Made by a program: the position numbers and the translations under genes. The notes beneath the pieces are model-generated. The model ran no database searches. It was not told where the DNA came from and was given only the letters and a program-made list of their open reading frames with translations. A stretch of 64,000 nucleotides of DNA from an uncultured bacterium (GTDB lineage Bacteria; Patescibacteriota; Minisyncoccia; Phycocordibacterales; UBA918): contig CBFGXL010000001.1 in NCBI GenBank assembly GCA_965652925.1, forward strand, positions 23,821-87,820. Reading direction: 5' to 3'. Positions 19,498 through 57,203 of the stretch are shown piece after piece (position 1 is the stretch's first letter; the number at the start of each line of letters is the position of its first letter).

Positions 19498-19503
19498 GAG
19501 GTG

Positions 19504-19890
19504 TTACATACTATAATTACGCAGGTGCATCTCCACTATTTTTTGTGCACGCTCCTTCTTCCTGGCAGTACGAAGTGCCTGCGCACACTCACTGTCTCCC
19601 AGCACATGTTCTACCCAGTCAGCGAAATCATTTTTTTCTTTGGTGACGTGATGAATGAATATTTCGTCATCCATAGAGCCGAAAGCGAGCTGCAGATCTG
19701 AGAGGTTTCTGAGAATCTGTCCGTCGCGTGACCAGAAGCATTCGCCATCAATTGCACAGACCATCGCCCGAAAGTCTTTTTTAGGAACTGCTTTTTTGGC
19801 AGCTCCTTTTTTTGCTGTTTTTTTAGCGACGGTCTTTTTTGCCGCTTTTTTTGCTGGTGTGGTCTTGGTTGAAGACGTAGGCATATGCAT
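19504..19890 (-). CDS. Small protein with a histone-H1-like Lys/Ala-rich N-terminus and a globular C-terminal domain
   Basis: MHMPTSSTKTTPAKKAAKKTVAKKTAKKGAAKKAVPKK, then a non-repetitive ~85-aa domain. The first 22 codons overlap the GH57 3' end. The coding strand carries four A6-A7 runs. Confidence 0.45.
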   Translation of the reverse strand: MHMPTSSTKTTPAKKAAKKTVAKKTAKKGAAKKAVPKKDFRAMVCAIDGECFWSRDGQILRNLSDLQLAFGSMDDEIFIHHVTKEKNDFADWVEHVLGDSECAQALRTARKKERAQKIVEMHLRNYSM

Positions 19891-21235
19891 TGCTTAACTT
19901 ACGTGAATAAATGGTTATCAAAGAAGCGACAAAATCAACCGCTTTGCCAAACCAGTCTTTGAGCTGGTGTGCAAACGTCATTTCGTATACCTCCTCCACA
20001 ACACGATCTCCCTCCTTTTCTCTGAGTCGTTTTGCTTCTACTGCATGTTGTACCCTTAATTGTAAATCACACAGTGCATTCATGAAAGCAACATATGCAT
20101 CATATGGGGATTGGTACGGAGAGAAGTATGCATGCACATCTCCATCATTGGACCATTTTGTGCACATGTAGTAGAAGTGATCGGATGTCTGCAGCTTGCG
20201 CCATGTTTCAAGCAACTCTCTGTCTTCAGTGTAGAGCACATCCTTTTCCAGTGCGTAGATGGCCTGTATTGCATCCTTTTGGATATCATTGCCTGTCCAG
20301 GCTGTGAGGTCGCGGTCAGTGTCAGCCCACGTCAGGACACTTGGCACATCAATTTCACCCACAGCGTCATAACTCATGATCGTCTCTGATGGCGTCTTGA
20401 AGGAAGTATCAGGATGCTGTGTGAGCATGTGCGGAAATACCTTCATGAAGTTGAATATGCCGGTGTCTTCCCACTGATGCTCACCAAACGTCTCGTAATC
20501 CATGAAGAGGTTGATGGTATTCCCGTCTCCATGGTGCGCATGGATCCAATTTGCGTACGTTTCGGCCTTCAGCGGATAACTCTCCCATCCCTGATTACCA
20601 AAACGGAATGCCAGATCGTCAGAAAGTTTGTAGTTCTTTAAAAGCACTTTGATACGGTTGCAGCCGACGGGCTTGTAGACATAGTTGGGACTGCGCCAGC
20701 CCAAAACAGGATCCCAACCTTCTGCCATGATGCCCAAGTAGCCATGATCTTCGCACCACTTCGCCAGATCGTTGCGGTACGAAAGTTCCGTGTTGCGAAA
20801 AACGCGGGGAGTGTAGTTAAACAACTTATGTATGCGCTGCGCATGTTGGGCGACCTGCCGCTCGAACTCAGGAACCGAATAAAAGAACGCAAGCGAATGG
20901 TGATAGGTATCAGCAAGTATCTCTACGCGGCCGGTTGCCACCAACTCTTGGAAACTTTCAAGCACATCCGGAGCATACGCTTCAAACTGATCAAGCACCG
21001 TGCCTGAAAAAGAAAGAGCGAACCGAAACTCTTCATGCTCATCCAGAAGTTGCTTGAGCACACGATTCATTGGCCGATATGATTTTTCTGCAACCTTCTC
21101 CACGATCTTTTTGTTATTGAGGTCGCTTTCACTTCCGTCATTGAAGTATTGATTGTCATTTCCGATATCAAATACCCGATATCGCTTGACGCGGTATGGC
21201 TGGTGCACATGAAAATAAGGACAGACCGTGAGCAT
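19823..21235 (-). CDS. Glycoside hydrolase family 57 (alpha-amylase / 4-alpha-glucanotransferase / branching-enzyme type)
   Basis: GH57 signatures CPYFHVHQPYR and MDYETFGEH, 470 aa. Confidence 0.85.
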   Translation of the reverse strand: MLTVCPYFHVHQPYRVKRYRVFDIGNDNQYFNDGSESDLNNKKIVEKVAEKSYRPMNRVLKQLLDEHEEFRFALSFSGTVLDQFEAYAPDVLESFQELVATGRVEILADTYHHSLAFFYSVPEFERQVAQHAQRIHKLFNYTPRVFRNTELSYRNDLAKWCEDHGYLGIMAEGWDPVLGWRSPNYVYKPVGCNRIKVLLKNYKLSDDLAFRFGNQGWESYPLKAETYANWIHAHHGDGNTINLFMDYETFGEHQWEDTGIFNFMKVFPHMLTQHPDTSFKTPSETIMSYDAVGEIDVPSVLTWADTDRDLTAWTGNDIQKDAIQAIYALEKDVLYTEDRELLETWRKLQTSDHFYYMCTKWSNDGDVHAYFSPYQSPYDAYVAFMNALCDLQLRVQHAVEAKRLREKEGDRVVEEVYEMTFAHQLKDWFGKAVDFVASLITIYSRKLSNAYAYVFNQDHTSKKSGKKDRR

Positions 21236-21237
21236 GC

Positions 21238-22449
21238 TTATGTAATGAATTCTACCAAACGCCGGTACAAAGAGATAACTTTAGCGGCAGCATGCTTCCA
21301 GGACAGTCTTTTTATCTCATTTCTCCCTTCGCGAACCAGCTGTTCTCTCAAAACCGGATAGCGAAGCGAGGCGAGTATCTTGTTGGCCATTTCTTCTACA
21401 TCCCAAAAATCAACTTTCAGTACGTGTGATACCACTTCCGAAACTCCAGACTGTTTTGATATGAGTGACGGCGCACCGTGCTGTATGGCTTCCAGTGGCA
21501 CAAGACCAAACGGTTCAGACACTGACGGCATAACCACAAGATCAACACTCTGATACATCCGGTCGCGCTCTTCGTACCACAAGGCTCCTGCAAAAATGAC
21601 ATTATTAGAAAGTCCAAGGGCACCCACCTTGTGCATGATCTGTGCAGTCATGTCTCCCTTGCCTGAGATAACAAACACAACGTTGGGGTCAGTATCAACC
21701 ACTTTCCTCGCCGCCTCGACGAAATAGTCCACCCCTTTTTGAATGGTGATGCGTCCATGATAAAGGACGATCTTTTTGCCCTGTGCTTTTAGTTCGCTCA
21801 ATGCTGGCTCGTGACGCAATGGGTCTTCAACATCACAGCCGTTGTGTACCACTTCCACTTTTTGCGGATCCGCATCGTGTTTGTCTATGATAATGTTCTT
21901 GGTAAAGTTGCTTACCGTCACGATGCAATCGGCCATCGCAAATGCCTCCTTCTCAATCTTGAAAACTTCTGGATCAATATTATCGCTTGCCGCCTGATCA
22001 AACGCTGTTGCATGTACATGGAGCACCAAAGGCTTGCCGGTTGCTTTCTTGGCAGCAACACCAGCAAGGTACGAAGTCCAGTCATGCGCGTGGATGAGGT
22101 CAAACTCTTCTTCTTGTGCAATCTGGGCAGCCTTGTGTGCAAAGGCATGCACTTCTTCAAGGATCGTACGCGAGTAAATCACTCTCCGTCCTGTGGAGTC
22201 ATAAACATCAACACGCGTCTGAGAGCCCAGATATGGAACCAGACCTGAACTCACCTCTCTTGTTTTCACCATCTTCTCGACATCTGCAAAGATAAAACGA
22301 GCATTTCCCTGCACTTTTTGCGAACGTGGAAGTACAAAAATAACCTCAACACCTTCATGGGCGAGTTCACGAGTAAGCCCTTGGCACGCTATTCCAAGGC
22401 CTCCTGTTGTTTCTGGGGGGAAATCCCAGCCAAAGGTAAGTACCTTCAT
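21238..22449 (-). CDS. Glycosyltransferase, glycogen-synthase-like (GT4/GT5 GT-B fold)
   Basis: MKVLTFGWDFPPETTGGLG matches the GS-type nucleotide-sugar binding N-terminus. The C-terminal domain (HGRITIQKGVD...FVISGKG) is GT-B-like. It is adjacent to GH57 and GH15. Confidence 0.8.
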   Translation of the reverse strand: MKVLTFGWDFPPETTGGLGIACQGLTRELAHEGVEVIFVLPRSQKVQGNARFIFADVEKMVKTREVSSGLVPYLGSQTRVDVYDSTGRRVIYSRTILEEVHAFAHKAAQIAQEEEFDLIHAHDWTSYLAGVAAKKATGKPLVLHVHATAFDQAASDNIDPEVFKIEKEAFAMADCIVTVSNFTKNIIIDKHDADPQKVEVVHNGCDVEDPLRHEPALSELKAQGKKIVLYHGRITIQKGVDYFVEAARKVVDTDPNVVFVISGKGDMTAQIMHKVGALGLSNNVIFAGALWYEERDRMYQSVDLVVMPSVSEPFGLVPLEAIQHGAPSLISKQSGVSEVVSHVLKVDFWDVEEMANKILASLRYPVLREQLVREGRNEIKRLSWKHAAAKVISLYRRLVEFIT

Positions 22450-22628
22450 TGTACGTGTAAAACAACACTGCCATGATGCATTTTAGGAAATGTGGTGAGA
22501 GTAGGAAATGCAAGAAGCGCCGCAGTGTTAACCCCAGTCTAGCATGAGCTTTTTCATCAAAACCCCAGTTATACTCTGTTTTTAGGCCATTGACTGACAG
22601 TAATTGCTCTGATACTATTGCCGGCACT

Positions 22629-22808
22629 ATGTCACAAGAACGACTCATACGAATGGTTACCAAAGGCGACGAAAACGGCGTCGGCAAAAACCATGTCTAC
22701 TATACGACCTACAATAATAAGGTTAAAAAGGACCCAAGCAAGAAATACGAAGCCAAAAAATACAACCCAGTTGCAAAAAAGCACACAGTTTACACACAGA
22801 AGAAGTAA
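22629..22808 (+). CDS. rpmG: 50S ribosomal protein L33 (Cys-free, non-zinc form)
   Basis: NHVYYTTYNNKVKKDPSKKYEAKKYNPVAKKHTVYTQKK parallels the L33 pattern (NYTTTKNKRNTP.RLELKKY.P...KHT.H.E.K) with no Cys. A promoter-like TTGACT-17-TACTAT sits at 22590-22618 with -10 ~10 nt from ATG 22629, suggesting a near-leaderless mRNA. The start is uncertain: it could also be 22653. Confidence 0.7.
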   Translation: MSQERLIRMVTKGDENGVGKNHVYYTTYNNKVKKDPSKKYEAKKYNPVAKKHTVYTQKK

Positions 22809-22810
22809 AG

Positions 22811-22838
22811 AAAAAGATCGCCTCACGGCGATCTTTTC
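22811..22838. terminator. Bidirectional rho-independent terminator between convergent rpmG and fba
   Basis: AAAGATCGCC-tcac-GGCGATCTTT flanked by A-run and T-run. Confidence 0.6.
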
Positions 22839-22839
22839 T

Positions 22840-23871
22840 TTACTCCTTTTCCATTGTTGATTCATACGCCCCAGTATCCGCGAGACTATTGAGACGAAGC
22901 CGCTTCAGTAGTGCTTCCTGCGCCGCAGCAATATTCTCATCTCTGCCTTGCCATGTCTTCAAAACCGGTTCCTCAATCCCACGTGAATATGAAAAGGCAA
23001 ACTCCCAAGGTAGATCAGTCCGTTTGCTCTCCTGTTCTGCAATAGCATCAAGATTTGCTGTAGCACGTTCTGGTGTCTGCCCTCCTGAGAGGAAAACAAT
23101 CCCTCCCACATCCTCAGGGACAGCGTTTTTGAATGTACGCAATGTCGCCTCAGCAACCTCCTGAGGATTGGTCTGTTCGGGGTACTCGCTTCCCGCAAGC
23201 ACCATGCTACTTTTAAGAATAAGGCCTTTACAGTCAACTTTCTGTTCTTCAAGTGCGTCAAATACAATCTGTAGTGCTTGGGTGGTCACTGCCTCAGCTC
23301 TATGGAGATCGTGGCTTCCCGCGTGCAACACCTCGGGCTCCACCATAGGGACAATGCCAGCCTCCTGACAGAGAGCTGCATAGCGAGCAAGTAAAAAGGC
23401 ATCAGTGCGGATATTCTGGATAGTGGGGGTTGTGGTACCGATAGTAATAACTGCACGCCACTTTGCTGCACGAGCCCCCATGTTGTAGTACTCCTCCAAT
23501 CGTTTGCCGAGATCATCCAGACCTTGCGTAATCACTTCACCGGGGAAATTCGTATGTGGCACCGTACCCTTATCAACTTTAATGATTGGAATAATGCCCT
23601 TTGATATCAAAAGATCAGCAAAAACAATCCCGTCATCCGTGTGATTGCGAATGGTGCCATCATGCATAATCACCCCGGTTACGTACTGCTCTATGCCCGA
23701 AGTAGTAAAGAGAAGCTGGCGGTATTTTCGTCGCATTTCTGCTTCTTCAGGGACACCAACAGCCTTCAGCTGTTTATTCATTGATTCCGGACTCTGGTCA
23801 GCAGCAAGGATGCCTTTGCCCTTTGCCACTAATGCCGCCGCGATATCATACAGTTTTTGTTGATCAGCCAT
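22840..23871 (-). CDS. fba: Fructose-bisphosphate aldolase, class I
   Basis: GKGILAADQS (class I FBA GKGILAADES motif), the Schiff-base lysine region LILKSSMV, and FLSGGQ. Start at MADQQKLYD. Confidence 0.85.
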   Translation of the reverse strand: MADQQKLYDIAAALVAKGKGILAADQSPESMNKQLKAVGVPEEAEMRRKYRQLLFTTSGIEQYVTGVIMHDGTIRNHTDDGIVFADLLISKGIIPIIKVDKGTVPHTNFPGEVITQGLDDLGKRLEEYYNMGARAAKWRAVITIGTTTPTIQNIRTDAFLLARYAALCQEAGIVPMVEPEVLHAGSHDLHRAEAVTTQALQIVFDALEEQKVDCKGLILKSSMVLAGSEYPEQTNPQEVAEATLRTFKNAVPEDVGGIVFLSGGQTPERATANLDAIAEQESKRTDLPWEFAFSYSRGIEEPVLKTWQGRDENIAAAQEALLKRLRLNSLADTGAYESTMEKE

Positions 23872-23922
23872 ACGCCTAGTGTATCGCGTTTGAAAAGCAA
23901 ATTGGCAGTGCAATGTGAGCAA

Positions 23923-33249: not shown

Positions 33250-33278
33250 AAAAGCCCTCAGTGATGAGGGCTTTTTGT
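33250..33278. terminator. Bidirectional rho-independent terminator (AAAGCCCTCA-gtga-TGAGGGCTTT)
   Basis: 10-bp stem flanked by A- and T-runs, between the convergent dsbA-like gene and the helicase-nuclease gene. Confidence 0.65.
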
Positions 33279-36200
33279 TATCTCTGTTGCAACATATGGA
33301 CATATGCACAGTAATCGCAGACTTTTTCATCGCAGGCAGATGTTAAGAATTCACCTCCAATGATCTGTTTTACTACGCTGATTATCTCCTGCTGAAGCTC
33401 GTGAATTTCTTCGGCAGTTATCTCAAATCTCTCCTCGTGGATCACTCCTTTGTTGTCCGGTTCAATAAAGGTGAGTACCCCTGTCTTACACACATAACGC
33501 TCATCCCCATACAATGAAAGGAGAAGAGCATAGAAAGTAAGCTGACGTTTGTATTCTCCATTCCCTGTCTGTGTTTTCCCTTCAATGACATTGCGTGTTT
33601 TGGGCTTCCCTGTCTTGTAATCAACAACCTGAATAACTCTTCCCTCGCCATCCATATCCAGCCGATCAAGTTTTCCGGTGAGCGTGAGTTCTGGGAATTC
33701 AGGTATTCCCGTTGGCATAGCAACATGGATGGAGAATTCTTCCACGGTATTCAAAGGGAGGGAGCTCGCCATGTGAGGTATATAGGAAAGCAAGGATTGC
33801 AGGCCTTTTTCATGTAGCTGAGTATACTCCTCCTCCGATAACGGAAGTTTCAACAGCGCAAGCTCAAGGTAATGCTTTATCTCCGAATCGCTCGGCATTT
33901 CCCCTTTTTTTGTGTGTGTGGCAGTCACCTTTTGCATAACTTCGTGTACGGCTGTCCCGAACAGAAGTGGCAGATCCTGCACCTCAGGTATCCGCAACAC
34001 ATTACGATAAAGATAATTCCATGGACTCTGCAAGTAATTATTGAGTGCGGTTGCTGAAAGCCCTCTTTCTTTGAGCATATGCTGCAGAAATGCCGGATCA
34101 ACCTGCGCTTTAACTTCAACCGCGGACAATGAGGCAGTAGGGCTGAATCGTGATTCGACCTCTTCAGTTGCAAGTGCTTTCATATGCTCAGACGCTATTT
34201 CACAAAGAAGCCTTGAGACAAGGAGTTTTTTCCCATCGCTGTTTGTATGAGCGTACGAAAGATGAAGCGATTCCTTTGCACGCGTCATAGCAACAAACAG
34301 AAGCCTCCGTTCATCGTCATAAGGGTCAAAGATCTCCGCGTCAATGTGTCGATTAAGCGGGACATCAAAGTATGTTCTGCGTACTGCCCCACCCCAATTA
34401 GAATCATGCACATGCGGGACAAAGACGTGCGAAAACTCAAGTCCTTTAGATTTATGAGCAGTCATAACCTGCACGGCATGTGCCTGTGTGGCAAGATATG
34501 GAGCATTCAAGGGAAGTTTATATTGGAAATATGATGTGAGCGAATCATGTACATCTTTCAGTGTGGCATGTTGCTTCTGAAGAGACAACGCCTCAAGCTC
34601 ATCATATAAGCGGCGAATGACTCTCCCATGCTCAACAGGGTCCGCGACTAACGCCATCTTCAACAATCCACTTTCTTGCAGCAGATATTCCAGGACACGG
34701 GCGGGGCTTTGTGTCATCTGACGCCTCTGAGCTTCTGCAAGCACCTGTGCTATTCGGGTAAATTTCTCTGGTTCTGCTACACCAAGTGTTCGCAATTTTA
34801 CCTCATCAGAAATCAAGCTCCACAACGATACGGAAAAATTGCGCGTAGTGAGCACTTTCAACAGATCATCTGTTTTTATTTCCCAATGTGCTCCATGCAA
34901 TAACGTAAATAAGGGCTTCTGTGAATCCACCTGCACCACTGCACCGATAAGATTAAAAACTGAAGTGGTCAGCGGGTGCTGCAGAATGTCTCCATCTGCA
35001 GTTGCTTCAACGGCAATACCCTTCTTGCGTAAAAGCGATGCAAACTGTTCGACCTCCCTGTTGGTACGTACAATGACAGCAATTTCTTCGCTCTTTACGC
35101 CACTATTGATACACCTCACAATAGTGTCCACCACCCAAGCATCCTCAACTATCTGATGAGAGAACGCCGCACTTACCACCTCACCTTTCGCTTCTGGCTG
35201 TGCCTGAAGCGGAATGCGCAATTCAGCTGCAGGTCCTTCCCCTGCCCTGATAAGGCTAAAAGCAGCGTCAAGAATGGTCTGACCTGATCTGTAGTTGTGG
35301 GTGAGTGCTACAGTCTTTGTGTGTGAGAAGGAATCTTCGAAATAAAGAAAATTCTCCAGAGATGCTCCTTGAAAACGATAGATCGCCTGTTTCTCATCAC
35401 CTACCACAAAGATGTTTGGGGTGTCATGGTATGCACACAGCAATTCCAAAATGCGATTCTGACTACCATTCACATCCTGATGTTCATCGGCGTGAATATA
35501 GTGATATTGCTCCTGCAGGTCCAGAAGCATGTCAGCATTCTCTTCGAGTGCCTTGATCGTTTCAACGATCATATCGTCGAAATCAAAAAGACGCTGCTCT
35601 TGAAGCAATGCTTCATAGAGTCGATAGACCAACAACAGTTCTTTGTTCTTTTCGATACTTTTCTCCTTCTTCTGGTATTCGCCACGAACCTTTCCTTTAT
35701 GGGCTCCCTTAGTGTGCATTTTCTCAATACCTGCAAGCGCATGCTCTTGCGTAGCGATGATAGATGCAAGACCATCAGGACTGATATTCTCCTGTTTCAT
35801 CGACGATAATATGCGTAAAAGGGGTGTGACATAGTATGAAGGGTCCCCGACGGGACGGAGCAGACGGAAACTGTTTGACTGCAGAATGCTCTCAATAAGA
35901 TCAATCTTCTCAAGGTCGGTCGCTGCTCTTCCGCCTATGATCCGTGTGTACGCATCGGGATAGGTGGAAATGAGCTGCTGGCAGAAACTATGAAAAGTTG
36001 CGATCTTAACGCGATACGCCCGCGTACCTGCATACAGTGCAAGACGTTCTCGCATAGCTGAGGCCCCTGACTCAGTAAAGGTGAGCGCAAGTATGTTTTC
36101 TGGCTGTACCTGCGTTTCAAGCAGTATCTTGGCAATGCGAAGCGTGAGTATCTGTGTCTTCCCTGTGCCCGGTCCCGCAATAACCATCACCGGCCCTTCA

Positions 36201-36298
36201 ATGGCATCAACCGCAGCCCTCTGTTCAGTATTCAAGGCATTGTATGCCCGTTTAAATGCCTCAGAAAGCTCCTCACCTTTGCGGTCGGTTTTTTGCAT
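33278..36298 (-). CDS. UvrD/PcrA-family SF1 helicase fused to a C-terminal PD-(D/E)xK nuclease with a Cys cluster (AddB/Cas4-like)
   Basis: N-terminal AGPGTGKT (Walker A) and UvrD motifs. The C-terminus has GKLDRLD...VVDYKTGK (PD-D/ExK) and SACDEKVCDYCAY. Start at MQKTDRK (36298); the longest ORF reaches 36370. About 1007 aa. Confidence 0.8.
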   Translation of the reverse strand: MQKTDRKGEELSEAFKRAYNALNTEQRAAVDAIEGPVMVIAGPGTGKTQILTLRIAKILLETQVQPENILALTFTESGASAMRERLALYAGTRAYRVKIATFHSFCQQLISTYPDAYTRIIGGRAATDLEKIDLIESILQSNSFRLLRPVGDPSYYVTPLLRILSSMKQENISPDGLASIIATQEHALAGIEKMHTKGAHKGKVRGEYQKKEKSIEKNKELLLVYRLYEALLQEQRLFDFDDMIVETIKALEENADMLLDLQEQYHYIHADEHQDVNGSQNRILELLCAYHDTPNIFVVGDEKQAIYRFQGASLENFLYFEDSFSHTKTVALTHNYRSGQTILDAAFSLIRAGEGPAAELRIPLQAQPEAKGEVVSAAFSHQIVEDAWVVDTIVRCINSGVKSEEIAVIVRTNREVEQFASLLRKKGIAVEATADGDILQHPLTTSVFNLIGAVVQVDSQKPLFTLLHGAHWEIKTDDLLKVLTTRNFSVSLWSLISDEVKLRTLGVAEPEKFTRIAQVLAEAQRRQMTQSPARVLEYLLQESGLLKMALVADPVEHGRVIRRLYDELEALSLQKQHATLKDVHDSLTSYFQYKLPLNAPYLATQAHAVQVMTAHKSKGLEFSHVFVPHVHDSNWGGAVRRTYFDVPLNRHIDAEIFDPYDDERRLLFVAMTRAKESLHLSYAHTNSDGKKLLVSRLLCEIASEHMKALATEEVESRFSPTASLSAVEVKAQVDPAFLQHMLKERGLSATALNNYLQSPWNYLYRNVLRIPEVQDLPLLFGTAVHEVMQKVTATHTKKGEMPSDSEIKHYLELALLKLPLSEEEYTQLHEKGLQSLLSYIPHMASSLPLNTVEEFSIHVAMPTGIPEFPELTLTGKLDRLDMDGEGRVIQVVDYKTGKPKTRNVIEGKTQTGNGEYKRQLTFYALLLSLYGDERYVCKTGVLTFIEPDNKGVIHEERFEITAEEIHELQQEIISVVKQIIGGEFLTSACDEKVCDYCAYVHMLQQR

Positions 36299-36376
36299 AA
36301 AATACAGTGTACTACAAAAAACACCGGAGCTCATAGAGGCAGTTCCGATGTTTTTTGATGTACTGTGCAAGCAAAG

Positions 36377-39170: not shown

Positions 39171-40487
39171 TTAATACGATTTAAGTCTTCGTGCTTTTTC
39201 ATGCTGCCGAATCTTCTCGAGCGCTTTTGCTTCGATCTGCCGAATACGCTCTCGGGTCACTCCAAACTCCTTACCTACCTCTTCCAGTGTGTGGTACGTC
39301 CCGTCAAGAAGACCATGTCGCATCTCGAGAATTTTGCGCTCTTTCTCAGAAAGCGAATCGAGGATCTCCTGGATCTGGTCTGTGAGAATACTATGTGCAA
39401 CTTCCTGATCGGGAGACGTGATCTTATCATCAGCAATGAAGTCAGAGAGTCGCGATCGATCATCGTCATCCCCAATAGGAAGTTCAAGTGAGATAGTGTC
39501 TTGGCTGATCTTCTCGATCTGATAGATCTTATCAACTTCTACTCCCATTTCTGTAGCTATCTCCTCAGGCATAGGGTCTCGACCGAGATCCTGTGAAAGT
39601 CGGCGGGACACCTGCTTATACTTCGCCATGGTTTCCACCATGTGCACTGGGATACGGATAGTGCGTGACTGGTCAGCAAGCGCACGAGTGATTGCCTGGC
39701 GGATCCACCAGGTTGCATAAGTCGAGAATTTAAATCCCTTTGTATGGTCGAACTTATCAACTGCTTTAAAGAGACCAAGGTTCCCCTCTTGAATGAGGTC
39801 AAGCAACGTAAGATCAGGACTTCGCCCGACATATTTCTTTGCGATCGACACCACAAGACGGAGGTTCGCACGTGCAAGCAAGTTACGTGCTTCCTCATCA
39901 CCTTCGACGATGCGTTTTGCAAGTGTACGTTCTTCTAGCGCCGTCAGAAGCGGATACTGCCCGATCTCACGAAGATACATCTGTATAGAGTCATAGCCGC
40001 TTTCATTGCGCTTGTATGAGTTTTTGCGTTCGAGCAATTCAACACTCGGGTCTTCTCCCAGCATACCCCCGCTTTGAAGGACATCAATTCCTGCCACACC
40101 AAAACGTTCGTACATCTCATCAAGAAATGGTACGTCTTTTTCTATCTGTGGAAAGTATTTGAGGATCTCGTCGAACGTGATGTACCCTCGCTCTCTACCT
40201 AACCGCATCAATTCTCCAGCCTTTGCCTCGAGTATCTTCTGATTTTTGGTTAATTTCAGCGGTGCTGCCTGCTTCTTAACTGCCGCCTTTTTAGGGGCAG
40301 CTTTCTTCACCGGAGCTTTCTTTGCTGATTTCTTTACACTTATTTTCTTCCCACTTTTTTTTGGCTTTGTTTTGTTGGCTTTTGCAGTATTTTTAACTGC
40401 TTTCTTAGCCACTTTTTTTATTGCCTTTTTAACGACTTTTTTGGTCGTTTTTTTTGTTGTTTTTTTGGTTGCCTTTTTTGCAGCCAT
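39171..40487 (-). CDS. rpoD: RNA polymerase sigma-70 (primary sigma factor) with an ~80-aa N-terminal Lys-rich tail
   Basis: Region 2 ([31 protein letters not shown]), region 3, and region 4 ([24 protein letters not shown]). The N-terminus is [25 protein letters not shown]... Confidence 0.9.
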
Positions 40488-40528: not shown

Positions 40529-42295
40529 CTAGGCGAAGTGTTCGGCAGTGACTTTTTTGGCATTCTGATCTTGCTGTATACGGGATATTTCGCGTATGTA
40601 TTCCAGCACTTTAGCCTCATCACCTTCCGCCTCGCTTTGTTTAAGCTGTTCCTTAAATTCCTGGATTGCCTCTCTGGCAAAGAGGCGGGATAATTCGTTG
40701 AGCTTGTCAGCGATATCCTCCGACAGTTGCCTGTGCGGCGTGTCGTGCAAGTATGTTTCAAGCGTAAAGAGGAGACCGCTTTTGAGCTCCGCAGAAAGTT
40801 CACTTTCGATCTGGGACAGCTCTTGTTGCGTTATCTCATAAAATGCATCCGAGATAGATTTCTGCATTTTTTGGTCGGCAAGTGTGGAAAGCACCGCAAA
40901 ATATTTTACAAGCTCCTCCTTTCTGCGGGTCCGGTCCGTAGCATCTTCTTCCTTCGCCGAAGCAATCGGAGTTTCTACAGCGCGAACCTGCTCCTTTACA
41001 GCACCTTCTTTTGCCTGTTCGGAAAGCCGCACCACCTCATAGTGAATTGCATCTTTGCTCGTTGCAATGCGTTGCGCGATCACTCCTTCAAAATGATCCT
41101 GGTCTATTTTATTCGCTATTTTTGCAAGAAGTGGCAGCACCTCTTCTCGTACACGAAGTTTCAGTGTGCGATCATCTTTTTTTTCTGACTCAAGTACATC
41201 TAAAAGATATTCAACAATACTTTGAGCCCCTCCGACGATCTTGCGCAACTTTCCCACATCTTCGCGCACCATGTCTGCAGGATCCTTTCCTCCGATCATG
41301 TTCGCTACTTTGATATCAATCCCTCGCGGCAGCATGATATCAGCGGCGCGCTTTACTGCGGCAATGCCAGCTTTGTCTGCATCTAATGCAAGGACCACTC
41401 TGTTGGAAAGGCGCTGCAGAAGCATGACATGATGTGGAGTCAAAGCAGTACCCGAGACAGCAACTGTATTGGTATATCCTGCCTGATGTGAAAGCACAAC
41501 ATCAAATTGGCCTTCAACCACAAGCGAAAAATCCAAGTGCCGTATGCCCTGTTTTGCTTTGTCGTACCCGAACAGTATCTCCGATTTATTGAAAAGCTCT
41601 GTCTCAGGTGAATTCACATACTTCGGCGCTTCGCTATCTTTGCTGAGGATGCGCCCGGAGAATGCAACTACCTTCCCATTAGCATCACATATCGGAAACA
41701 TGATGCGATCACGAAAAAGATCGTAAGGTTCCTTCCCTCCGTCTGCCCCTTTGATGAGACCGGCCTTCAGGAGTTCGTGTTTTGTAAATCCCTTACTTTC
41801 AAGATGCTCCTTTAGCTCTCTCCATCCATACTGTGGAGGGCCAGGCGCATATCCGATTCGCCATTTTGCAATAGTCTCTGCAGTTACGCCTCGATCAGTT
41901 AAATATGGAAGCACTTCTTCACTTTTATGACGGTACTCTTCGAAGAACCTCGTCGCTTCTTCAAGCGCATCATAGAGCCTGTCACGCTCAGATTTTTTCT
42001 TTGGATCTTCAGCTACGAGTTCAACCCCCGCCTTTGCTGCAAGAATTTTTAATGCCTCTTTGAAATCTACCCCCTCCATTTTCTGGATAAAGGTGAAGAT
42101 ATCTCCTCCCTGCGACGAAGAAAAGCAGTAGTACATGCCTCTGTCAGGGGACACATAAAACGACGGCGTACGTTCGTTAGTGAACGGAGATTTTCCCTTG
42201 AAATTTTTCCCCGCCTGATGAAGTTCCACATATGAGGAAACGACATCAACAATACTCAAGCGTTCTTTTATGCGTTCAACTGAGTCGGAAGCCAT
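40529..42295 (-). CDS. dnaG: DNA primase DnaG (TOPRIM), with a degenerate N-terminal zinc-binding domain
   Basis: [17 protein letters not shown] and ALDADKAG. The N-terminal region aligns to the CHC2 zinc finger, but the ligands are replaced: KSPFT for CPFH and YCFSSS for HCFGCG. Confidence 0.9.
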
Positions 42296-42319
42296 AGTAT
42301 GGCTATTTTACACCAAAAA

Positions 42320-42366
42320 CACATAAACAGCCCGGCTTTGAACCGGGCTGTTTATGTGTTTTTTTC
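42320..42366. terminator. Strong rho-independent terminator (16-bp stem CACATAAACAGCCCGG / CCGGGCTGTTTATGTG) between rpoC and dnaG
   Basis: Perfect 16-bp inverted repeat with loop ctttgaa, followed by a T-run on both strands. Confidence 0.7.
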
Positions 42367-42373
42367 GGAATTT

Positions 42374-45300
42374 TTATTCCTTTTCCTGTATATCCGAGAT
42401 CATTTGAGACTTCTGTGATCCTTTGAAGCCTGTTCCCGCTGGGATGAGCTTTCCAATGATCACGTTCTCCATAAGTCCTGCGAGGTTGTCGTTGCTTCCC
42501 TTCACTGCTGCGTTTATGAGAACACGTGTCGTGTTCTGGAATGATGCAGCCGAGAGGAATGACTTTCGTGAGAGTGAAGACTCAGTAATACCCATGATAA
42601 GCTTGGTAGCCTTCGCAGGATCCTTTCCTGCTTCAGTAAGCTCTTTGTTCGCTTCAACAAAGATCCACTCCTCGACGATCTCACCTGGTGTGAAGTGGCT
42701 GTCTCCAGAGTTAGTGATCTTCACGCGACTCATCATTTGCTTCACAATAAGCTCGATGTGCTTGCGGGCAATAGTCACTCCCTGAAGCTCGTAGATCTTG
42801 TTGATCTCAGAAATGATGTATTCCTGTGTCTGCTCCTTCGTGCCGTATTTGAACATGTCGGGCAAGTATGCAGAACCGTCAGTAAGCAGCTGTCCGGCCT
42901 TCACATTTTCTCCCTTTGAGACAATAACGGTTCGTCGGTAGTTCGCCTCGTACTCGATGATATCGCTCTTCTTTGGAGCATACTTCGAATCCTTGGCAGG
43001 AACCACAACGATGATCTTCTCCTTTCCTTCAGTGCGGATCTCGCTTACGAAACCGTCGGTCTTTGAGATCACCGCAGGGTTCTTTGGCAGACGCTTCTCG
43101 AAGACTTCCTCCACACGAGGAAGACCCTGTGTCACGTCTCCACCCACTGCTGAAGTACCTCCCGCGTGCTTGGTGTTCATCGTGAGCTGTGTTCCCGGCT
43201 CACCAATCGCCTGTGCGGCTACAGTACCGACTGCCTCTCCGATATCAACGAGACTGTTGGTTGTGAGATCAACTCCATAGCACTGCTGACAGACTCCGCG
43301 GAGCGTGTTACAGGTCATAGGAGAACGAACAACAACTGATTCTGCGCTCGATCCTTCAACAGCAAGTGCATCCCGTCGTGTGAGCATATGCCCTTTCTTA
43401 AAGAGGACAGTGCCTTCTTTATCCACTATATCAGAAGCAAGTACGCGGCCCTTGATCGCCTTTGAGAAAGCAATCTGGATACCAGAAGCACTGAGTCGGC
43501 CAATAGTTACCCCCTCCTTTGTCTTACAATCAGCTTCTGTAACAATTGCATCCTGTGCAACTACGAAGAGACGGCGGGTAAGATAACCAGCTTTAGCGGT
43601 CTGAAGCGCTGTGTCAGCAAGACCCTTACGAGAACCGTGAGTAGTGATGAAGTACTCGATCGGCGACATACCTTCCTTCATGGAAGAGATAACTGGGAAT
43701 TCGAGTGTCTCTCCCCGCGTGTTAACGATAAGTCCTTTCATACCGATCATCTGCGCGATCTGACGCATAGAACCTCGCGCACCTGACTTCCAGAGGTCGT
43801 ATGCTGAACCATTTGGGTTCATACGATCAGGGATCACTTCCTCGAGTGCACTCTTTGTTCGGTGCCAGATCTCGATGATCATGCGACGACGTTCATCTCG
43901 GGACAGAAGTCCTTGTTCAAAATGTTCAATGATCGCACGTTCTTCTTCACGAGCCTGAGCAATGATCTCTGGTTTCTCTTTCGGCACAACCACCTCGTCG
44001 ATTCCCCAGGTTGTTCCAGAGACGGTTGCATATTTGAAACCGAATTTCTTGATCTTGTTGACTACTTGCGGTACGACATCTACACCCTGGTCGTCGATGA
44101 GATCAAGTACAACACCGAAGAGATCGCGCTGTGTTACAAGCTGGTTGATGTACGGATGATCTGATGGCAAGACACTATTGAAGAGAAGTCGGCCTACTGA
44201 TGTCTCAAAGAGTTCGCCATTAAACTGAGCATACTTTGGTGTATCGGTAGCGAGTACTTTGATCTTTGCACGGAAGTCGACAATGCCGTAATCGTAGGCA
44301 TTGATCGCATCGTTAGGAGATGCAAAGAACTTGTTCTCGCCCTTTGCTCCTTCGATGATCTTGGTCATCCAGAAGGAACCGAGTGCCATATCCATGAGCG
44401 ATTCAGAAACAACCGGCTCGCTTGAACCTGGCTTCAGAACGTTCTTGTTTGCAGAGATAATCTCACGCGCTTCAAGCTGCGCTTCGTCTGAGAGCGGCAC
44501 GTGTACTGCCATCTGGTCTCCGTCGAAGTCAGCGTTAAACGCCTTACAAACCAATGGATGCACTTGGATAGCATTACCTTCGATCAGTACTGGGCGGAAT
44601 GCCTGGATACCCTGTCGGTGGAGCGTCGGTGCGCGGTTCAAAAGTACATGCTTCTGAGAGATCACTTCTTCGAGAATTGCCCATACTTCTGGAACTCCGT
44701 CCTCAATGAGGCGTCCTGCTCCACGAATGTTGTACGCGAGTTCTTGTCGGAGAAGCTTTGAAATGACGAATGGACGGAAGAGCTCAAGCGCCATGTGTTT
44801 TGGAAGTCCGCACTGGTCGAGCTCGAGGTCCGGACCGATAACGATCACGGAACGTCCGGAATAGTCCACGCGCTTACCCAAGAGGTTCTGGCGGAAGTAT
44901 CCTTGCTTGCTCTTGAGGTAGTCAGAAAGTGATTTCAGAGGGCGGCGCTGTGCCTGACTCATCGCTGAGTATGCAGTGTTGCCGTGGCGAATTGAGTTAT
45001 CAATAAGGGCATCAACTGCTTCTTGCAGAATACGTTTTTCGTTTCGCAAGATCACGTCAGGAGCCATGATGTCTATAAGCTTCTTCAGACGATTGTTTCG
45101 GTTGATCACACGGCGGTAGAGGTCGTTGAGATCTGATGAAGCGTGCCGTCCGCCTTCAAGCGCAACCATTGGTCGCAATGCTGGGGGGATAACCGGAATA
45201 CGGTTGAGGAACATCCATTCTGGACGCACCCCTGAGTGGATCATGCCGCGCACAAGATTGAGACGCTTGTCGAGTTTTGCGCGTTCAGCAACTCCAGCCT

Positions 45301-46033
45301 TTTCACGTTCAGCCTCCAACTGTTCTTTGAGCTTCCCGAGATCAATGTTCTTGAAAAGTTCATAGATAGATTCAGCACCGATCTTTGCCTCGAAAAGCGT
45401 CGAATACTTCACTGAGAATTTATGGAATGAAGTCTCATCGAGCACCGTGCCCTGCATAAGACTTTCAATCTCATTTTTCGTCTCGGTCATACGCGTCTTT
45501 AGCGCCTCACGAGCTTCCTCATTCTGCAGTTCCTTGAGTTTTGATTTGTATTCGGTATCGAGCTCCTTCAGAAGTCGTGCACGCTCCTCTTCAGAGACTT
45601 TTGTAACGATGTACCCTGCAAAGTAGATAACCTTCTCTACTGCAGCAGCAGTGATTCCCAAGATCAACGCTATGCGGCTTGGTACTCCACGCAAGAACCA
45701 GATGTGTGACACTGGCACACAGAGTTCAATGTGGCCCATGCGCTCACGCCGAACAATAGCGCGGGTTACTTCTACCCCACACTTTTCACAAACAATACCC
45801 TTGTAGCGGATACCGCGATACTTCTTACAAGAACACTCATAGTCCTCAACCGGTCCAAAGATGCGCTCGTCGAACAAACCGTGCTTTTCAGGGCGCTGTG
45901 TTCGGTAGTTGATGGTCTCAGGCTTGGTTACCTCGCCGAATGACCACTCGAGGATCTTGTCAGGAGAGGCGAGCTTCAGGCTCACTTCGCTGAATTGAGT
46001 AGGAACTCCCCTCTTTTGTGTATTTGGATTCAT
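42374..46033 (-). CDS. rpoC: DNA-directed RNA polymerase subunit beta'
   Basis: Zinc-finger [20 protein letters not shown], catalytic [14 protein letters not shown], 1219 aa. Confidence 0.97.
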
Positions 46034-54876: not shown

Positions 54877-54918
54877 GCCTGCACATCACGTTAGTGTTGT
54901 GCAGGCTCTTCTCTATTT
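54875..54918 (+). terminator. Rho-independent terminator (GAGCCTGCACA...TGTGCAGGCTC plus TTCTCTATTT)
   Basis: 11-bp stem overlapping the stop codon of the upstream ORF. It lies between convergent genes. Confidence 0.55.
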
Positions 54919-57180
54919 GGCCACCGCAACAGCTTCCTCAAATTTAACTGATAGGAGTTTTGAGATACCATCGCCCCCCATTGTTACTCCGTAGAGGATA
55001 CCCGCACGACTCATGGTCTCGCGATTATGCGTGATAAGGATGAGTTGTGACTTCTCTGCAAGAGCTTCAATCATGTCACCGTAGCGGCGGGAATTTGCTT
55101 CATCAAGTGCTGCGTCTGTCTCATCGAGTATGATGAACAGAGGCGGATTGACCTGGCTCATGGCGAAAATGAGCGCAATGGATGTGAGCGCCCGTTCGCC
55201 GCCGGAAAGCATATCGAGTCCGCGCACCCGCTTATTGGGAAGTTTCACATCGAGCTCAATTCCTTCCTGTATAGACTCATCGTCCTCCTCAGGAAGCTCT
55301 TCCTCACCTTCCTCAAGCTCATCTTTCGATCTGCGGACCTTCGGCTTCACACGCAACAGTTTTGCCTCTCCTCCACCAAACATGAGAGCAAAAAAGCGGT
55401 TGAACTCGGCAGCTATTTTTTCTATTCCCGTAACAAATTCATTATTAAGCGAAATGGTAAGCTCAGCGATAAGCTCTTCAAGTTTTGTTATGGAAGTTTC
55501 AAGGTCAGCTATCTCGCGCACCAAAAAAGCATCACGCTCTTTAACCTCCTTGTATTCCTTTTCCACATCCTGATCAACGCCTCCGAGTTCCTCAAGGCGT
55601 ATCTTGAGCTTCTCAAGCTCCCTGCGTCGATCTTTCTGTATTTGCCTGTCTTCGTCCACGATCTCTTTATTGCTCACCGCTTTGCCATCTTTGAGTATTT
55701 CAAAGGTGAAATACTTTGAAGCACCGCTACCGATGAGCGCTACTGCTTCCTGCAGCTCGCGCTTGAACTCAGTGCGATCTCGATCAAGTGCTGAGAGCTC
55801 AGCCTCAATACGCGAAATGAGGTTTTCGCATTCGCGTTGCTCTCCTATGATACGGAAAACCTCACGTTCAGCATCCCGGCTTTCTGATTGTTCAGCCTCG
55901 ATTGACCGCCGCACTTCCTCATATTCTGTAGTGAGTGAAGCCTCCTCTTTTTCAATATGTACGATCTCTTTTTCGCAAACCCGCTGCTCTTCATACAGTT
56001 CCTGGAGTTCTTTCTCCTCCTCCTTCGTACTGACTGCAACCGAACCGGAGGCATGCTGCAAAAGCTTGCGCAACATATGCACCAGATCAGCAAAAGACCG
56101 GCGGAGGAAACTAACGTCCTCAACCGTACTCACCTTTTGTGCCGCCAGTTCAACAGCGTCAAGCACTTTCTTAAACTCACTTCCTGGTACAGGAGCAATA
56201 TCTTCCTGAGCAAGTTTTTCTTTCATCTGGGCAATACGGCGCTCCAAAAAAAGTACCTGCCCTTCAACAGAGCCGCTTTTACGCAGAAGTTCCTGCCGTT
56301 GTTTGCGTACTGCAGATATCTGTTCTTCCAAAGCCACCAGCGCCGTACTCTTCTCGTCATTTTCACTGGCAGCAAGGACAGTTTTCGCCTTCGCGAGTTC
56401 TTGTGTTAAGAGCTGTAGCCTATTTTCAGGTTCTTTCTTTTCCCCTGTAAGTCTATCGTGATGAGATGCGATATACGTGTCTTCGCGTTTGAGATATTCT
56501 GCGTAGAAATTGGTCAATTCCTGCCGCAGCTGCAATGCACGCTCGATCTTCTTTATTTGCCGCTCCAAAAACTGCAGATGCGGTGCGACCTCGCGACGCA
56601 ACGACTGCACACGCTCCACGTTCTCACGCGTCTTTTGCAGTTTTTTCTCCGCTTCGCTTTTTTTATATTGGTATACTTTGAGGCCCAGTGCATCTTCGAT
56701 CATTTCTCTGCGCTCCTGATTTGAAGCAGAAAGAATGCGGTCGGCTTCACCTTGCGAAATGATATGGTGGCCCGTTGAACCTATGTTTGCCGCTGACAAT
56801 AATTCCTGCACATCCTTCAGTCGTACCTTTGAGTTATTGATCGAATATTCATTGGTACCGTCGCGATTGACCGTACGTTCAATGAGGATCTCATCAAAGT
56901 CCATCTGGAACACGCGTTTTGTGTTATCAAGGACAACGCTCACCTGCGCGCGATTGCCGCGAGAGACGCTGTCAGAGCCGTTGAAGATGAGGTCTTCACC
57001 TTTCTTTCCGCGCATGGACTTGATTGACTGCTCCCCCAAGACAAACCGAAACGCCTCCGCAACATTCGATTTTCCTGAACCATTTGGACCAACTATTGCA
57101 GTAATAGGCGCACTAAATTCAAGCTCGCTTTTTTTTGCAAAAGATTTAAAGCCACTGATTGTAAGGTGTTTAAGATACAT
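54913..57180 (-). CDS. smc: SMC-family chromosome condensation ATPase, short form (755 aa) with no recognisable hinge
   Basis: N-terminal MYLKHLTISGFKSFAKK...IVGPNGSGKSNVAEAFRFVLGEQSIKSMRG (SMC head with Walker A). C-terminal LSGGERALTSIALIFAM, Walker B ILDETDAALD, and the H-loop. The middle ~500 aa are coiled-coil heptads with no G-rich hinge. Confidence 0.8.
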   Translation of the reverse strand: MYLKHLTISGFKSFAKKSELEFSAPITAIVGPNGSGKSNVAEAFRFVLGEQSIKSMRGKKGEDLIFNGSDSVSRGNRAQVSVVLDNTKRVFQMDFDEILIERTVNRDGTNEYSINNSKVRLKDVQELLSAANIGSTGHHIISQGEADRILSASNQERREMIEDALGLKVYQYKKSEAEKKLQKTRENVERVQSLRREVAPHLQFLERQIKKIERALQLRQELTNFYAEYLKREDTYIASHHDRLTGEKKEPENRLQLLTQELAKAKTVLAASENDEKSTALVALEEQISAVRKQRQELLRKSGSVEGQVLFLERRIAQMKEKLAQEDIAPVPGSEFKKVLDAVELAAQKVSTVEDVSFLRRSFADLVHMLRKLLQHASGSVAVSTKEEEKELQELYEEQRVCEKEIVHIEKEEASLTTEYEEVRRSIEAEQSESRDAEREVFRIIGEQRECENLISRIEAELSALDRDRTEFKRELQEAVALIGSGASKYFTFEILKDGKAVSNKEIVDEDRQIQKDRRRELEKLKIRLEELGGVDQDVEKEYKEVKERDAFLVREIADLETSITKLEELIAELTISLNNEFVTGIEKIAAEFNRFFALMFGGGEAKLLRVKPKVRRSKDELEEGEEELPEEDDESIQEGIELDVKLPNKRVRGLDMLSGGERALTSIALIFAMSQVNPPLFIILDETDAALDEANSRRYGDMIEALAEKSQLILITHNRETMSRAGILYGVTMGGDGISKLLSVKFEEAVAVAK

Positions 57181-57203
57181 CGATATGCTTACTACACTCA
57201 ACG

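Follow-up and report, generated by a model that had tools for sequence, protein, structure and literature searches.

A conserved zinc-less form of the DnaG zinc-binding domain in Paceibacteria, probably functional and probably interchanged repeatedly with the canonical form

The dnaG gene described here raises the question of whether a primase whose zinc-binding domain (ZBD) lacks most of its zinc ligands is a damaged enzyme or a working one with a differently built domain. The gene lies in a window of 64,000 nucleotides from an uncultured bacterium (GTDB lineage Bacteria; Patescibacteriota; Minisyncoccia; Phycocordibacterales; UBA918), corresponding to positions 23,821 to 87,820 of contig CBFGXL010000001.1 in assembly GCA_965652925.1. 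In reviews, the three Cys and one His residues of the DnaG ZBD are called highly conserved, and Cys-less forms are not mentioned; only two DnaG ZBD structures are available, both zinc-bound (PMC6163395 and PMC8928506). What precisely the metal does when the template is recognised is, according to one of the reviews, not yet settled (PMC6163395). A full-text search of the literature found no description of a Cys-less DnaG ZBD. The original prediction, made from the letters of the window, had placed a DnaG primase with a degenerate ZBD at 42000-42295, a span that equals residues 1-98, i.e. the ZBD. The gene and the parts of its product are listed below.

40529..42295, minus strand: dnaG, DNA primase (TIGR01391; Pfam Zn_ribbon_DnaG, DNAG_N, and Toprim; 2au3)
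42011..42295, minus strand: N-terminal ZBD-homologous domain without the CHC2 site, residues 1-95 (PF01807; AlphaFold2 model against 1d0q_A)
42110..42256, minus strand: switch block, residues 14-62, which holds every fixed difference between zinc-less and canonical sequences of the mixed clade described below
42086..42208, minus strand: zinc-ribbon core, residues 30-70, with the four former ligand positions inside (alignments)
42188-42190, minus strand: first ligand, Cys replaced by S36, codon TCT (DNA sequence and alignment)
42179-42181, minus strand: second ligand, His replaced by T39, codon ACT (DNA sequence and alignment)
42125-42127, minus strand: third ligand, Cys kept as C57, codon TGC (DNA sequence and alignment)
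42116-42118, minus strand: fourth ligand, Cys replaced by S60, codon TCG (DNA sequence and alignment)
41552..41929, minus strand: DNAG_N, the N-terminal subdomain of the RNA polymerase domain, residues 123-248 (PF08275, 1.9e-40)
41261..41524, minus strand: TOPRIM catalytic fold, residues 258-345 (several Pfam Toprim models; alignment column counts)
40532..41005, minus strand: fast-evolving C-terminal region, residues 431-588 (no Pfam match; mean pairwise identity 0.27)

The open reading frame (ORF) is intact and of normal length, encoding 588 amino acids and ending with a stop codon at 40529-40531. The product matched TIGR01391, the NCBIfam equivalog model for dnaG, over residues 3-408 with 402.6 bits (cut-off, 283.6), and PF01807 (Zn_ribbon_DnaG, a 98-position model) over residues 3-95 with 102.6 bits (gathering score, 24.9; 1e-29). 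Among solved structures, 2au3 of Aquifex aeolicus DnaG was the best match (E = 1e-59); 1d0q, a structure of the ZBD by itself, was matched at 9e-24. In the gap-free HMMER alignment to 2au3, with which an alignment including Escherichia coli DnaG agrees, CPFH is replaced by S36-P-F-T39 and CFGCG by C57-F-S-S60-S. The knuckle Gly of the second knuckle is therefore S59 in this alignment, and the CHC2 site (Cys-x2-His ... Cys-x2-Cys) is absent. Residues 1-100 contain a single Cys (C57) and a single His (H26). The acidic residues of the TOPRIM fold (E261, D265, D305, D307, and D338) are all present and are invariant in 286 Paceibacteria DnaG sequences. The original prediction thus stands in identifying a DnaG primase, in reading three of the four CHC2 ligands as substituted with only one Cys in the N-terminal 100 residues, and, as regards the acidic residues, in describing the TOPRIM core as intact. 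Judged by profile, catalytic residues, and synteny, the window protein is a bona fide DnaG that fails the very feature naming its N-terminal domain.

Two further observations concern the rest of the protein. The TOPRIM DPD motif appears as D338-P-A340-D341 (41273-41284), in which the position of the second Asp of the E. coli motif (D347) is occupied by Ala, followed by Asp. This DPAD form was found in 277 of the 286 sequences, with both ZBD types, and a shifted metal ligand at the motif is possible. The C-terminal region is presumed, from its position only, to be the helicase-binding domain; low sequence conservation is a known property of the DnaB-helicase-binding C-terminal domain of DnaG (PMC8928506).

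The original prediction left it to a comparison of orthologues whether close relatives share the substitutions, and most of them do. Among the nearest full-length homologues (117 sequences, 57-100% identity), 102 showed the zinc-less pattern, with STCS (85 sequences), STCT (14), SSCT (2), or SVCS (1) at the four ligand positions; the other 15 had CHCC. From an exhaustive HMMER search of 1.84 billion 50%-cluster representatives, the nearest 150 were taken, and the 148 that could be scored comprised 32 zinc-less and 116 CHCC sequences. Among these zinc-less representatives, Ser occupies position 36 without exception, and T, N, S, K, A, V, or R stands where the His was; the third ligand position has Cys or, in four sequences (SKDS, SSDS, and SRDE), Asp, and position 60 is Ser or Thr, with one Glu. 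When one genome per GTDB species was scanned, 14 of the 40 related loci had zinc-less DnaG, with overall identities as low as 37%; the examples include Parcubacteria OLB19 and a Candidatus Paceibacter sp. The 90% cluster of the window protein has eight members, an identical protein included, and all members covering the region share the motif. In total, the zinc-less pattern is represented by 141 independent sequences from several repositories. According to the names attached to the homologues, the lineage concerned is Paceibacteria/Parcubacteria, including Kaiserbacteria, within the candidate phyla radiation (CPR), and the claim made here is restricted to it. By this distribution, the zinc-free DnaG ZBD is a lineage trait and not a lesion.

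Several observations on the individual homologues are recorded here. In P0126, P0162, P0212, and P0244, the last Cys is gone too (YYDFSSG... and YYDFGEGSGGD), and the zinc-ribbon motif is entirely Cys-free. In L022 (a Kuenenbacteria metagenome-assembled genome [MAG]) and L026 (a Patescibacteria MAG), the spacing of the second zinc knuckle is altered (HCFGACNDGGD and HCFGGCGKGGD) with the cysteines kept. P0294, P0119, and L014 carry the labels "Acidimicrobiales bacterium," "Candidatus Azotimanducaceae," and "Bacillota bacterium" on proteins 41-62% identical to the window DnaG, and these sequences are likely to come from mis-binned or mislabelled CPR contigs. Many CPR MAGs bear generic or evidently wrong titles, such as "uncultured Candidatus Saccharibacteria," "Bacillota," and "Acidimicrobiales."

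The distribution of sequence conservation along the protein bears directly on whether the domain is decaying. Within the 102 zinc-less relatives, the mean pairwise identity was 0.91 in the ribbon core (residues 30-70), the highest of any segment, as compared with 0.80 in the Toprim segment (residues 251-345), 0.71 in the linker and DNAG_N (residues 96-250), 0.57 in the post-Toprim segment (residues 346-430), and 0.27 in the C-terminal domain (residues 431-588). The zinc-less ribbon core is evidently under strong purifying selection. The replacement residues are also nearly invariant, and the term "degenerate" used in the original prediction does not fit such a domain.

The 286 sequences fall into two discrete states, 141 zinc-less and 145 canonical, and no partial ligand set was found among them. 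Four alignment columns separate the two states almost perfectly: position 36 is Ser in 141/141 zinc-less sequences and Cys in the canonical ones, position 39 is non-His and His, position 59 is Ser in 139/141 and Gly in 145/145, and position 60 is Ser or Thr in 140/141 and Cys, respectively. Positions 34, 47, and 62 are partially coupled to the ZBD type, and no column outside the ZBD tracks the ligand state. Zinc-less and canonical orthologues also have the same gene neighbourhood. Because no DnaG position outside the ZBD covaries with the ligand state and the neighbourhood is shared, nothing points to a partner that compensates for the missing ligands, and a partner signal within DnaG was dropped from consideration. 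Reliance on a partner was one consequence that the original prediction had drawn from the loss of the ligands; altered priming-site recognition, the other, would be no more than a suggestion. No mixing of states was seen in ten 90% clusters (~45 sequences), each of which was uniform, and polymorphism inside species-level clusters was rejected on this basis. Likewise, among the 40 species loci, no assembly contributed both DnaG forms or two loci. The trait thus goes beyond the original prediction in being lineage-wide and one of two discrete states, which are interleaved among relatives as described below.

Structure prediction for the N-terminus, a check raised together with the original prediction, recovered the ZBD topology, with a confidence below that of a canonical control. 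The AlphaFold2 model of residues 1-105, built from an alignment of 28 zinc-less sequences only, has five strands, preceded by two helices at the N-terminus and followed by two at the C-terminus. It matched 1d0q_A with E = 5e-9, template modeling (TM) scores of 0.79/0.81, and a root-mean-square deviation of 1.5 Å over 90 columns at 48% identity; 2au3 was also matched. It is reasonable to assume from the model that the zinc-less domain keeps the primase ZBD fold, the assignment being less certain than for the canonical form.

The two states are closely interleaved. The nearest neighbour by identity of the RNA polymerase domain is often of the opposite ZBD state. One such pair is zinc-less P0059 and canonical P0072, which share 95% identity over residues 100-430 and 83% overall. 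Their genes (loci L041 and L042) are orthologues, both lying in an rpoC-dnaG-rpoD-249aa-CBS-CitMHS-UvrD/PDDEXK neighbourhood that the window has as well. A neighbor-joining tree was constructed from corrected p-distances over residues 100-588, with the ZBD excluded, for 115 sequences with 200 bootstraps. In 99.5% of the bootstraps, 12 canonical and 5 zinc-less sequences together formed one clade, here called the mixed clade, and support was 0% for monophyly of a single state inside this clade and for a grouping of all 15 close canonical sequences. Parsimony required 7-11 switches in the close set (median, 9). The 32 parsimony switches counted on a 287-sequence global tree were not relied on, as neighbor-joining at ~40-50% identity is unreliable at depth.

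In the mixed clade, the fixed differences between the two states are located at positions 14, 15, 31, 32, 34, 36, 39, 47, 58, 59, 60, and 62, and there are none in residues 63-588. Homologous exchange is the simplest explanation because a contiguous, all-or-none block moves independently of the remaining gene, and homologous recombination of a block of ~150 nt (residues 14-62) is the most likely route of switching. The codons for Ser36 are TCN in most lineages and AGY in L004 and L005; as passage between the two families requires Cys or Thr, the history of the locus holds more than one conversion.

Here, we propose how such a domain may work. In the standard model, reportedly that of Corn et al. 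2005, the ZBD engages the template and, in concert with the RNA polymerase domain, regulates initiation, perhaps in trans on DnaB. The window DnaG would be the ordinary, working replicative primase of the organism, and its N-terminal domain, though free of metal, would still adopt the zinc-ribbon fold and serve to engage the template and to control how primers are started. In place of the Cys-His-Cys-Cys set there are Ser, a variable residue, Cys or Asp, and Ser or Thr, along with the Gly-to-Ser change in the second knuckle, and a polar network of hydrogen bonds and packing contacts may hold the two knuckles together in place of zinc. What the ion contributes structurally would then fall to Ser/Thr hydroxyl groups, to the Cys or Asp that is left, and to larger residues nearby (Y47 and Q62). 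This zinc-free form would be a stable alternative state across a large part of Paceibacteria, and the zinc-free and canonical forms would have replaced each other repeatedly among close relatives. To this reading, namely a functional, metal-independent ZBD in an ordinary replicative primase that forms a discrete alternative to the zinc form and is repeatedly interchanged with it, likely by block exchange, we assign a probability of roughly 0.68.

A number of points weigh against the reading. The words "zinc-free" and "functional" stand for the absence of metal and the retention of fold and function, which we infer. AlphaFold2 was clearly less confident for the zinc-less ZBD, with a mean predicted local distance difference test (pLDDT) score of 75.6 (five models, 44-76, two of them ~44), than for the ZBD of the canonical relative P0072, with a mean pLDDT of 86.1 (five models, 79-86), despite the shallower alignment of that control (15 canonical sequences). 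Moreover, AlphaFold2 has seen the homologous fold, and the model is not independent evidence of stability. The trees are based on neighbor-joining with corrected p-distances and not on maximum likelihood, and their deep nodes are unreliable. Recombination as the switching mechanism is also something we infer from the block pattern. In the closest compared pair, P0059/L041 and P0072/L042, synonymous divergence is near saturation along the whole of dnaG, with ~0.5 synonymous differences per identical-residue codon throughout. Recent recombination visible in the DNA was rejected, the block being indistinguishable from the remaining gene at synonymous sites in this pair; the lower third-position identity of codons 1-66 (0.47 versus 0.55) is within noise, and a sliding comparison of the block against five other genes gave a non-significant hint only. 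Finally, the analysis turned up no selective reason for the switch. Next to dnaG, rpoC retains its two Cys4 zinc sites, which argues against a general purge of zinc sites, and proteome-wide zinc sparing was discarded on this ground, RpoC being the only other zinc protein that could be checked in the window. No genes for zinc-ribbon ribosomal proteins were found in the window.

The alternative that survives best accepts the zinc-less domain but explains the interleaving by point-mutational conversions that took place repeatedly and independently (convergent loss and/or reversion, with strong epistasis) instead of block recombination. The absence of a clear excess of synonymous divergence in the block is compatible with it, as are the two Ser36 codon families, each one step from the Cys codons TGY. 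Furthermore, only four positions (36, 39, 59, and 60) are universally coupled to the state, and P0088 joins canonical ligands with the zinc-less-type residues N31 and G34. However, the same ~10-12 residues would have to change together at each switch, including positions 14, 15, and 32, which are not universally linked to the state; positions 14 and 15 do not part the two types across the whole set. Intermediates are absent from the 286 sequences, and the canonical blocks of two mixed clades have their own derived features H31, A34, T47, and Y58 in common. We consider point conversion a serious candidate but less probable than exchange of the block.

A second alternative is that a different ligand set still binds a metal. 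The ligands could be C57 and H26 along with carboxylates or hydroxyls, the ion could be a harder one (Mg2+ or Ca2+), or a second subunit could complete the site. C57 is kept in 137 of 141 zinc-less sequences and is otherwise replaced by Asp, a possible ligand of hard metals; H26 is present in 88 of the 102 sequences of the zinc-less close group and absent from the canonical ones, and all of the replacement residues are oxygen donors. Against such a site, H26 is not conserved once the zinc-less sequences beyond the close group are included, Q and T being frequent at that position; the former His position accepts A, V, K, and R, Ser and Thr hydroxyls are poor zinc ligands, and residues 1-100 offer one Cys and one His only. 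Because the former His position varies freely and the last Cys is sometimes gone, a conserved metal site appears implausible in the zinc-less form, and we regard this alternative as unlikely.

Even less probable, in our view, is a degenerate domain as in metazoan TWINKLE, in which the ZBD function would have been lost with the ligands and another protein would supply priming or its specificity. Human TWINKLE lost three of the four ZBD cysteines and its primase activity (PMC7231222), a TWINKLE structure (7t8c) is among the weak fold matches to the AlphaFold2 model (TMq 0.46), and the lower confidence for the zinc-less ZBD than for its canonical relative would also be expected of such a domain. 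The TWINKLE N-terminal domain, which is of the T7 gp4-type primase-helicase kind, resembles that of the window DnaG in the loss of three of four zinc ligands. However, TWINKLE has lost primase activity and POLRMT primes instead, whereas in the window DnaG the catalytic acidic residues are invariant in the family and the Cys-less ZBD is conserved more strongly than any other part of the protein, with nearly invariant replacement residues. In addition, synteny is identical to that of the canonical orthologues, and the ORFs annotated in the 64-kb window include no second primase. A sequencing, assembly, or gene-calling artefact, or a pseudogene, has practically no chance of being the explanation, given an intact ORF, the same motif in 141 independently assembled sequences, and high conservation.

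The surroundings of dnaG are those of an ordinary chromosome, and the adjacent features are as follows.

42374..46033, minus strand: rpoC, directly upstream of dnaG (translation; both Cys4 zinc sites kept)
42318..42360, minus strand: terminator-like hairpin with a perfect 20-bp stem followed by a T-run, in the 78-nt rpoC-dnaG gap (palindromic on the plus strand too)
39171..40487, minus strand: rpoD, directly downstream of dnaG (translation; Lys/Ala-rich N-terminal tail)

The hairpin looks like a strong terminator parting dnaG from rpoBC. The conserved dnaG-rpoD gene pair is found in the window and also in L041 and L042, where Sigma70 Pfam matches were obtained. The N-terminal ~100 residues of RpoD form a long Lys/Ala/Thr-rich, histone-H1-like tail ahead of the conserved regions. 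A 1030-residue protein at 33278-36370 (minus strand), a fusion of an AddA/PcrA-like UvrD helicase with a PD-(D/E)XK nuclease, is syntenic with dnaG-rpoD in L041 and L042 as well. Other genes of the window encode RpoB, RNase R, HisRS, TruB, glycoside hydrolases, the AddA-like helicase-nuclease, and transporters. Pfam annotation of 20 large ORFs in the 64-kb window revealed no second primase and no zinc-related genes, and neither tRNA genes nor Rfam families at gathering score were found in positions 1-64000. A carbohydrate cluster at 17515-23922 (minus strand) contains a GH15 glucoamylase-like protein, a GH57 protein, a GT4/GT5 starch-synthase-like glycosyltransferase, and a class-I fructose-bisphosphate aldolase. 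An SMC_N-family ATPase at 54913-57201 (minus strand) has 762 amino acids with head halves at both ends (Pfam match, residues 9-747), a length that seems short for a bacterial SMC protein.

The comparison with known systems places the zinc-less ZBD close to the canonical domains of Geobacillus stearothermophilus (1D0Q) and A. aeolicus (2AU3). It is homologous in sequence, is predicted to have five strands flanked by helices, and is placed identically in a primase composed of the ZBD, the RNA polymerase domain, and the C-terminal domain, in the same dnaG-rpoD context; it differs from them in having S36, T39, and S60 in place of ligands and S59 in place of the knuckle Gly. A parallel is found in the C-terminal zinc-ribbon repeats of TopA, which exist in a zinc form (Topo_C_ZnRpt, E. 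coli) and a Cys-free form (Topo_C_Rpt, Mycobacterium), with zinc homeostasis and resistance to oxidative or pH stress as the proposed drivers of the Cys-less repeats (PMC9369019). Zinc limitation and the benefit of being rid of a thiolate cluster prone to oxidation are the ideas put forward for these repeats (PMC9369019). As in DnaG, a DNA-binding zinc-ribbon module of a TOPRIM-family enzyme occurs in zinc and Cys-free forms depending on the lineage. Unlike the DnaG forms, however, those of TopA belong to another protein and domain family and are fixed at about the phylum level, and alternation among close relatives is unreported there (PMC9369019).

A second parallel is provided by the C+/C- zinc-ribbon ribosomal proteins, said to have been described by Makarova, Ponomarev & Koonin in 2001 ("Two C or not two C: recurrent disruption of Zn-ribbons..."). 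In both cases, zinc ligands have been lost recurrently and in a lineage-specific manner from a zinc ribbon, with retention of function, which for DnaG is probable on the evidence above. C- ribosomal proteins are often paralogues beside C+ copies and are zinc-regulated, whereas zinc-less and canonical DnaG are orthologues at one syntenic locus in different genomes. A more specific proposal is that there are two interchangeable ZBD cassettes of ~50 codons, one zinc-dependent and one metal-free, repeatedly exchanged by homologous recombination under environment-dependent selection (zinc availability, or exposure to sulfide or oxidants). We put this forward tentatively and consider it doubtful as it stands. 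If true, it would be a single-locus, replisome-level counterpart of the C+/C- system and a natural experiment showing that zinc is dispensable for template recognition by a primase.

The CHC2 zinc site has been treated as a constant of bacterial primases, and here the only detected primase of a large natural lineage is without it. A PF01807 match therefore does not imply a zinc site, which calls for caution in annotation pipelines and in inhibitor design. With the zinc-less DnaG, the few zinc ribbons that have lost their metal gain a representative from the replisome, and the matched zinc and zinc-free orthologues, which differ only in a block of ~50 residues, would allow a direct test of what zinc contributes to the stability, redox sensitivity, and initiation specificity of the primase.

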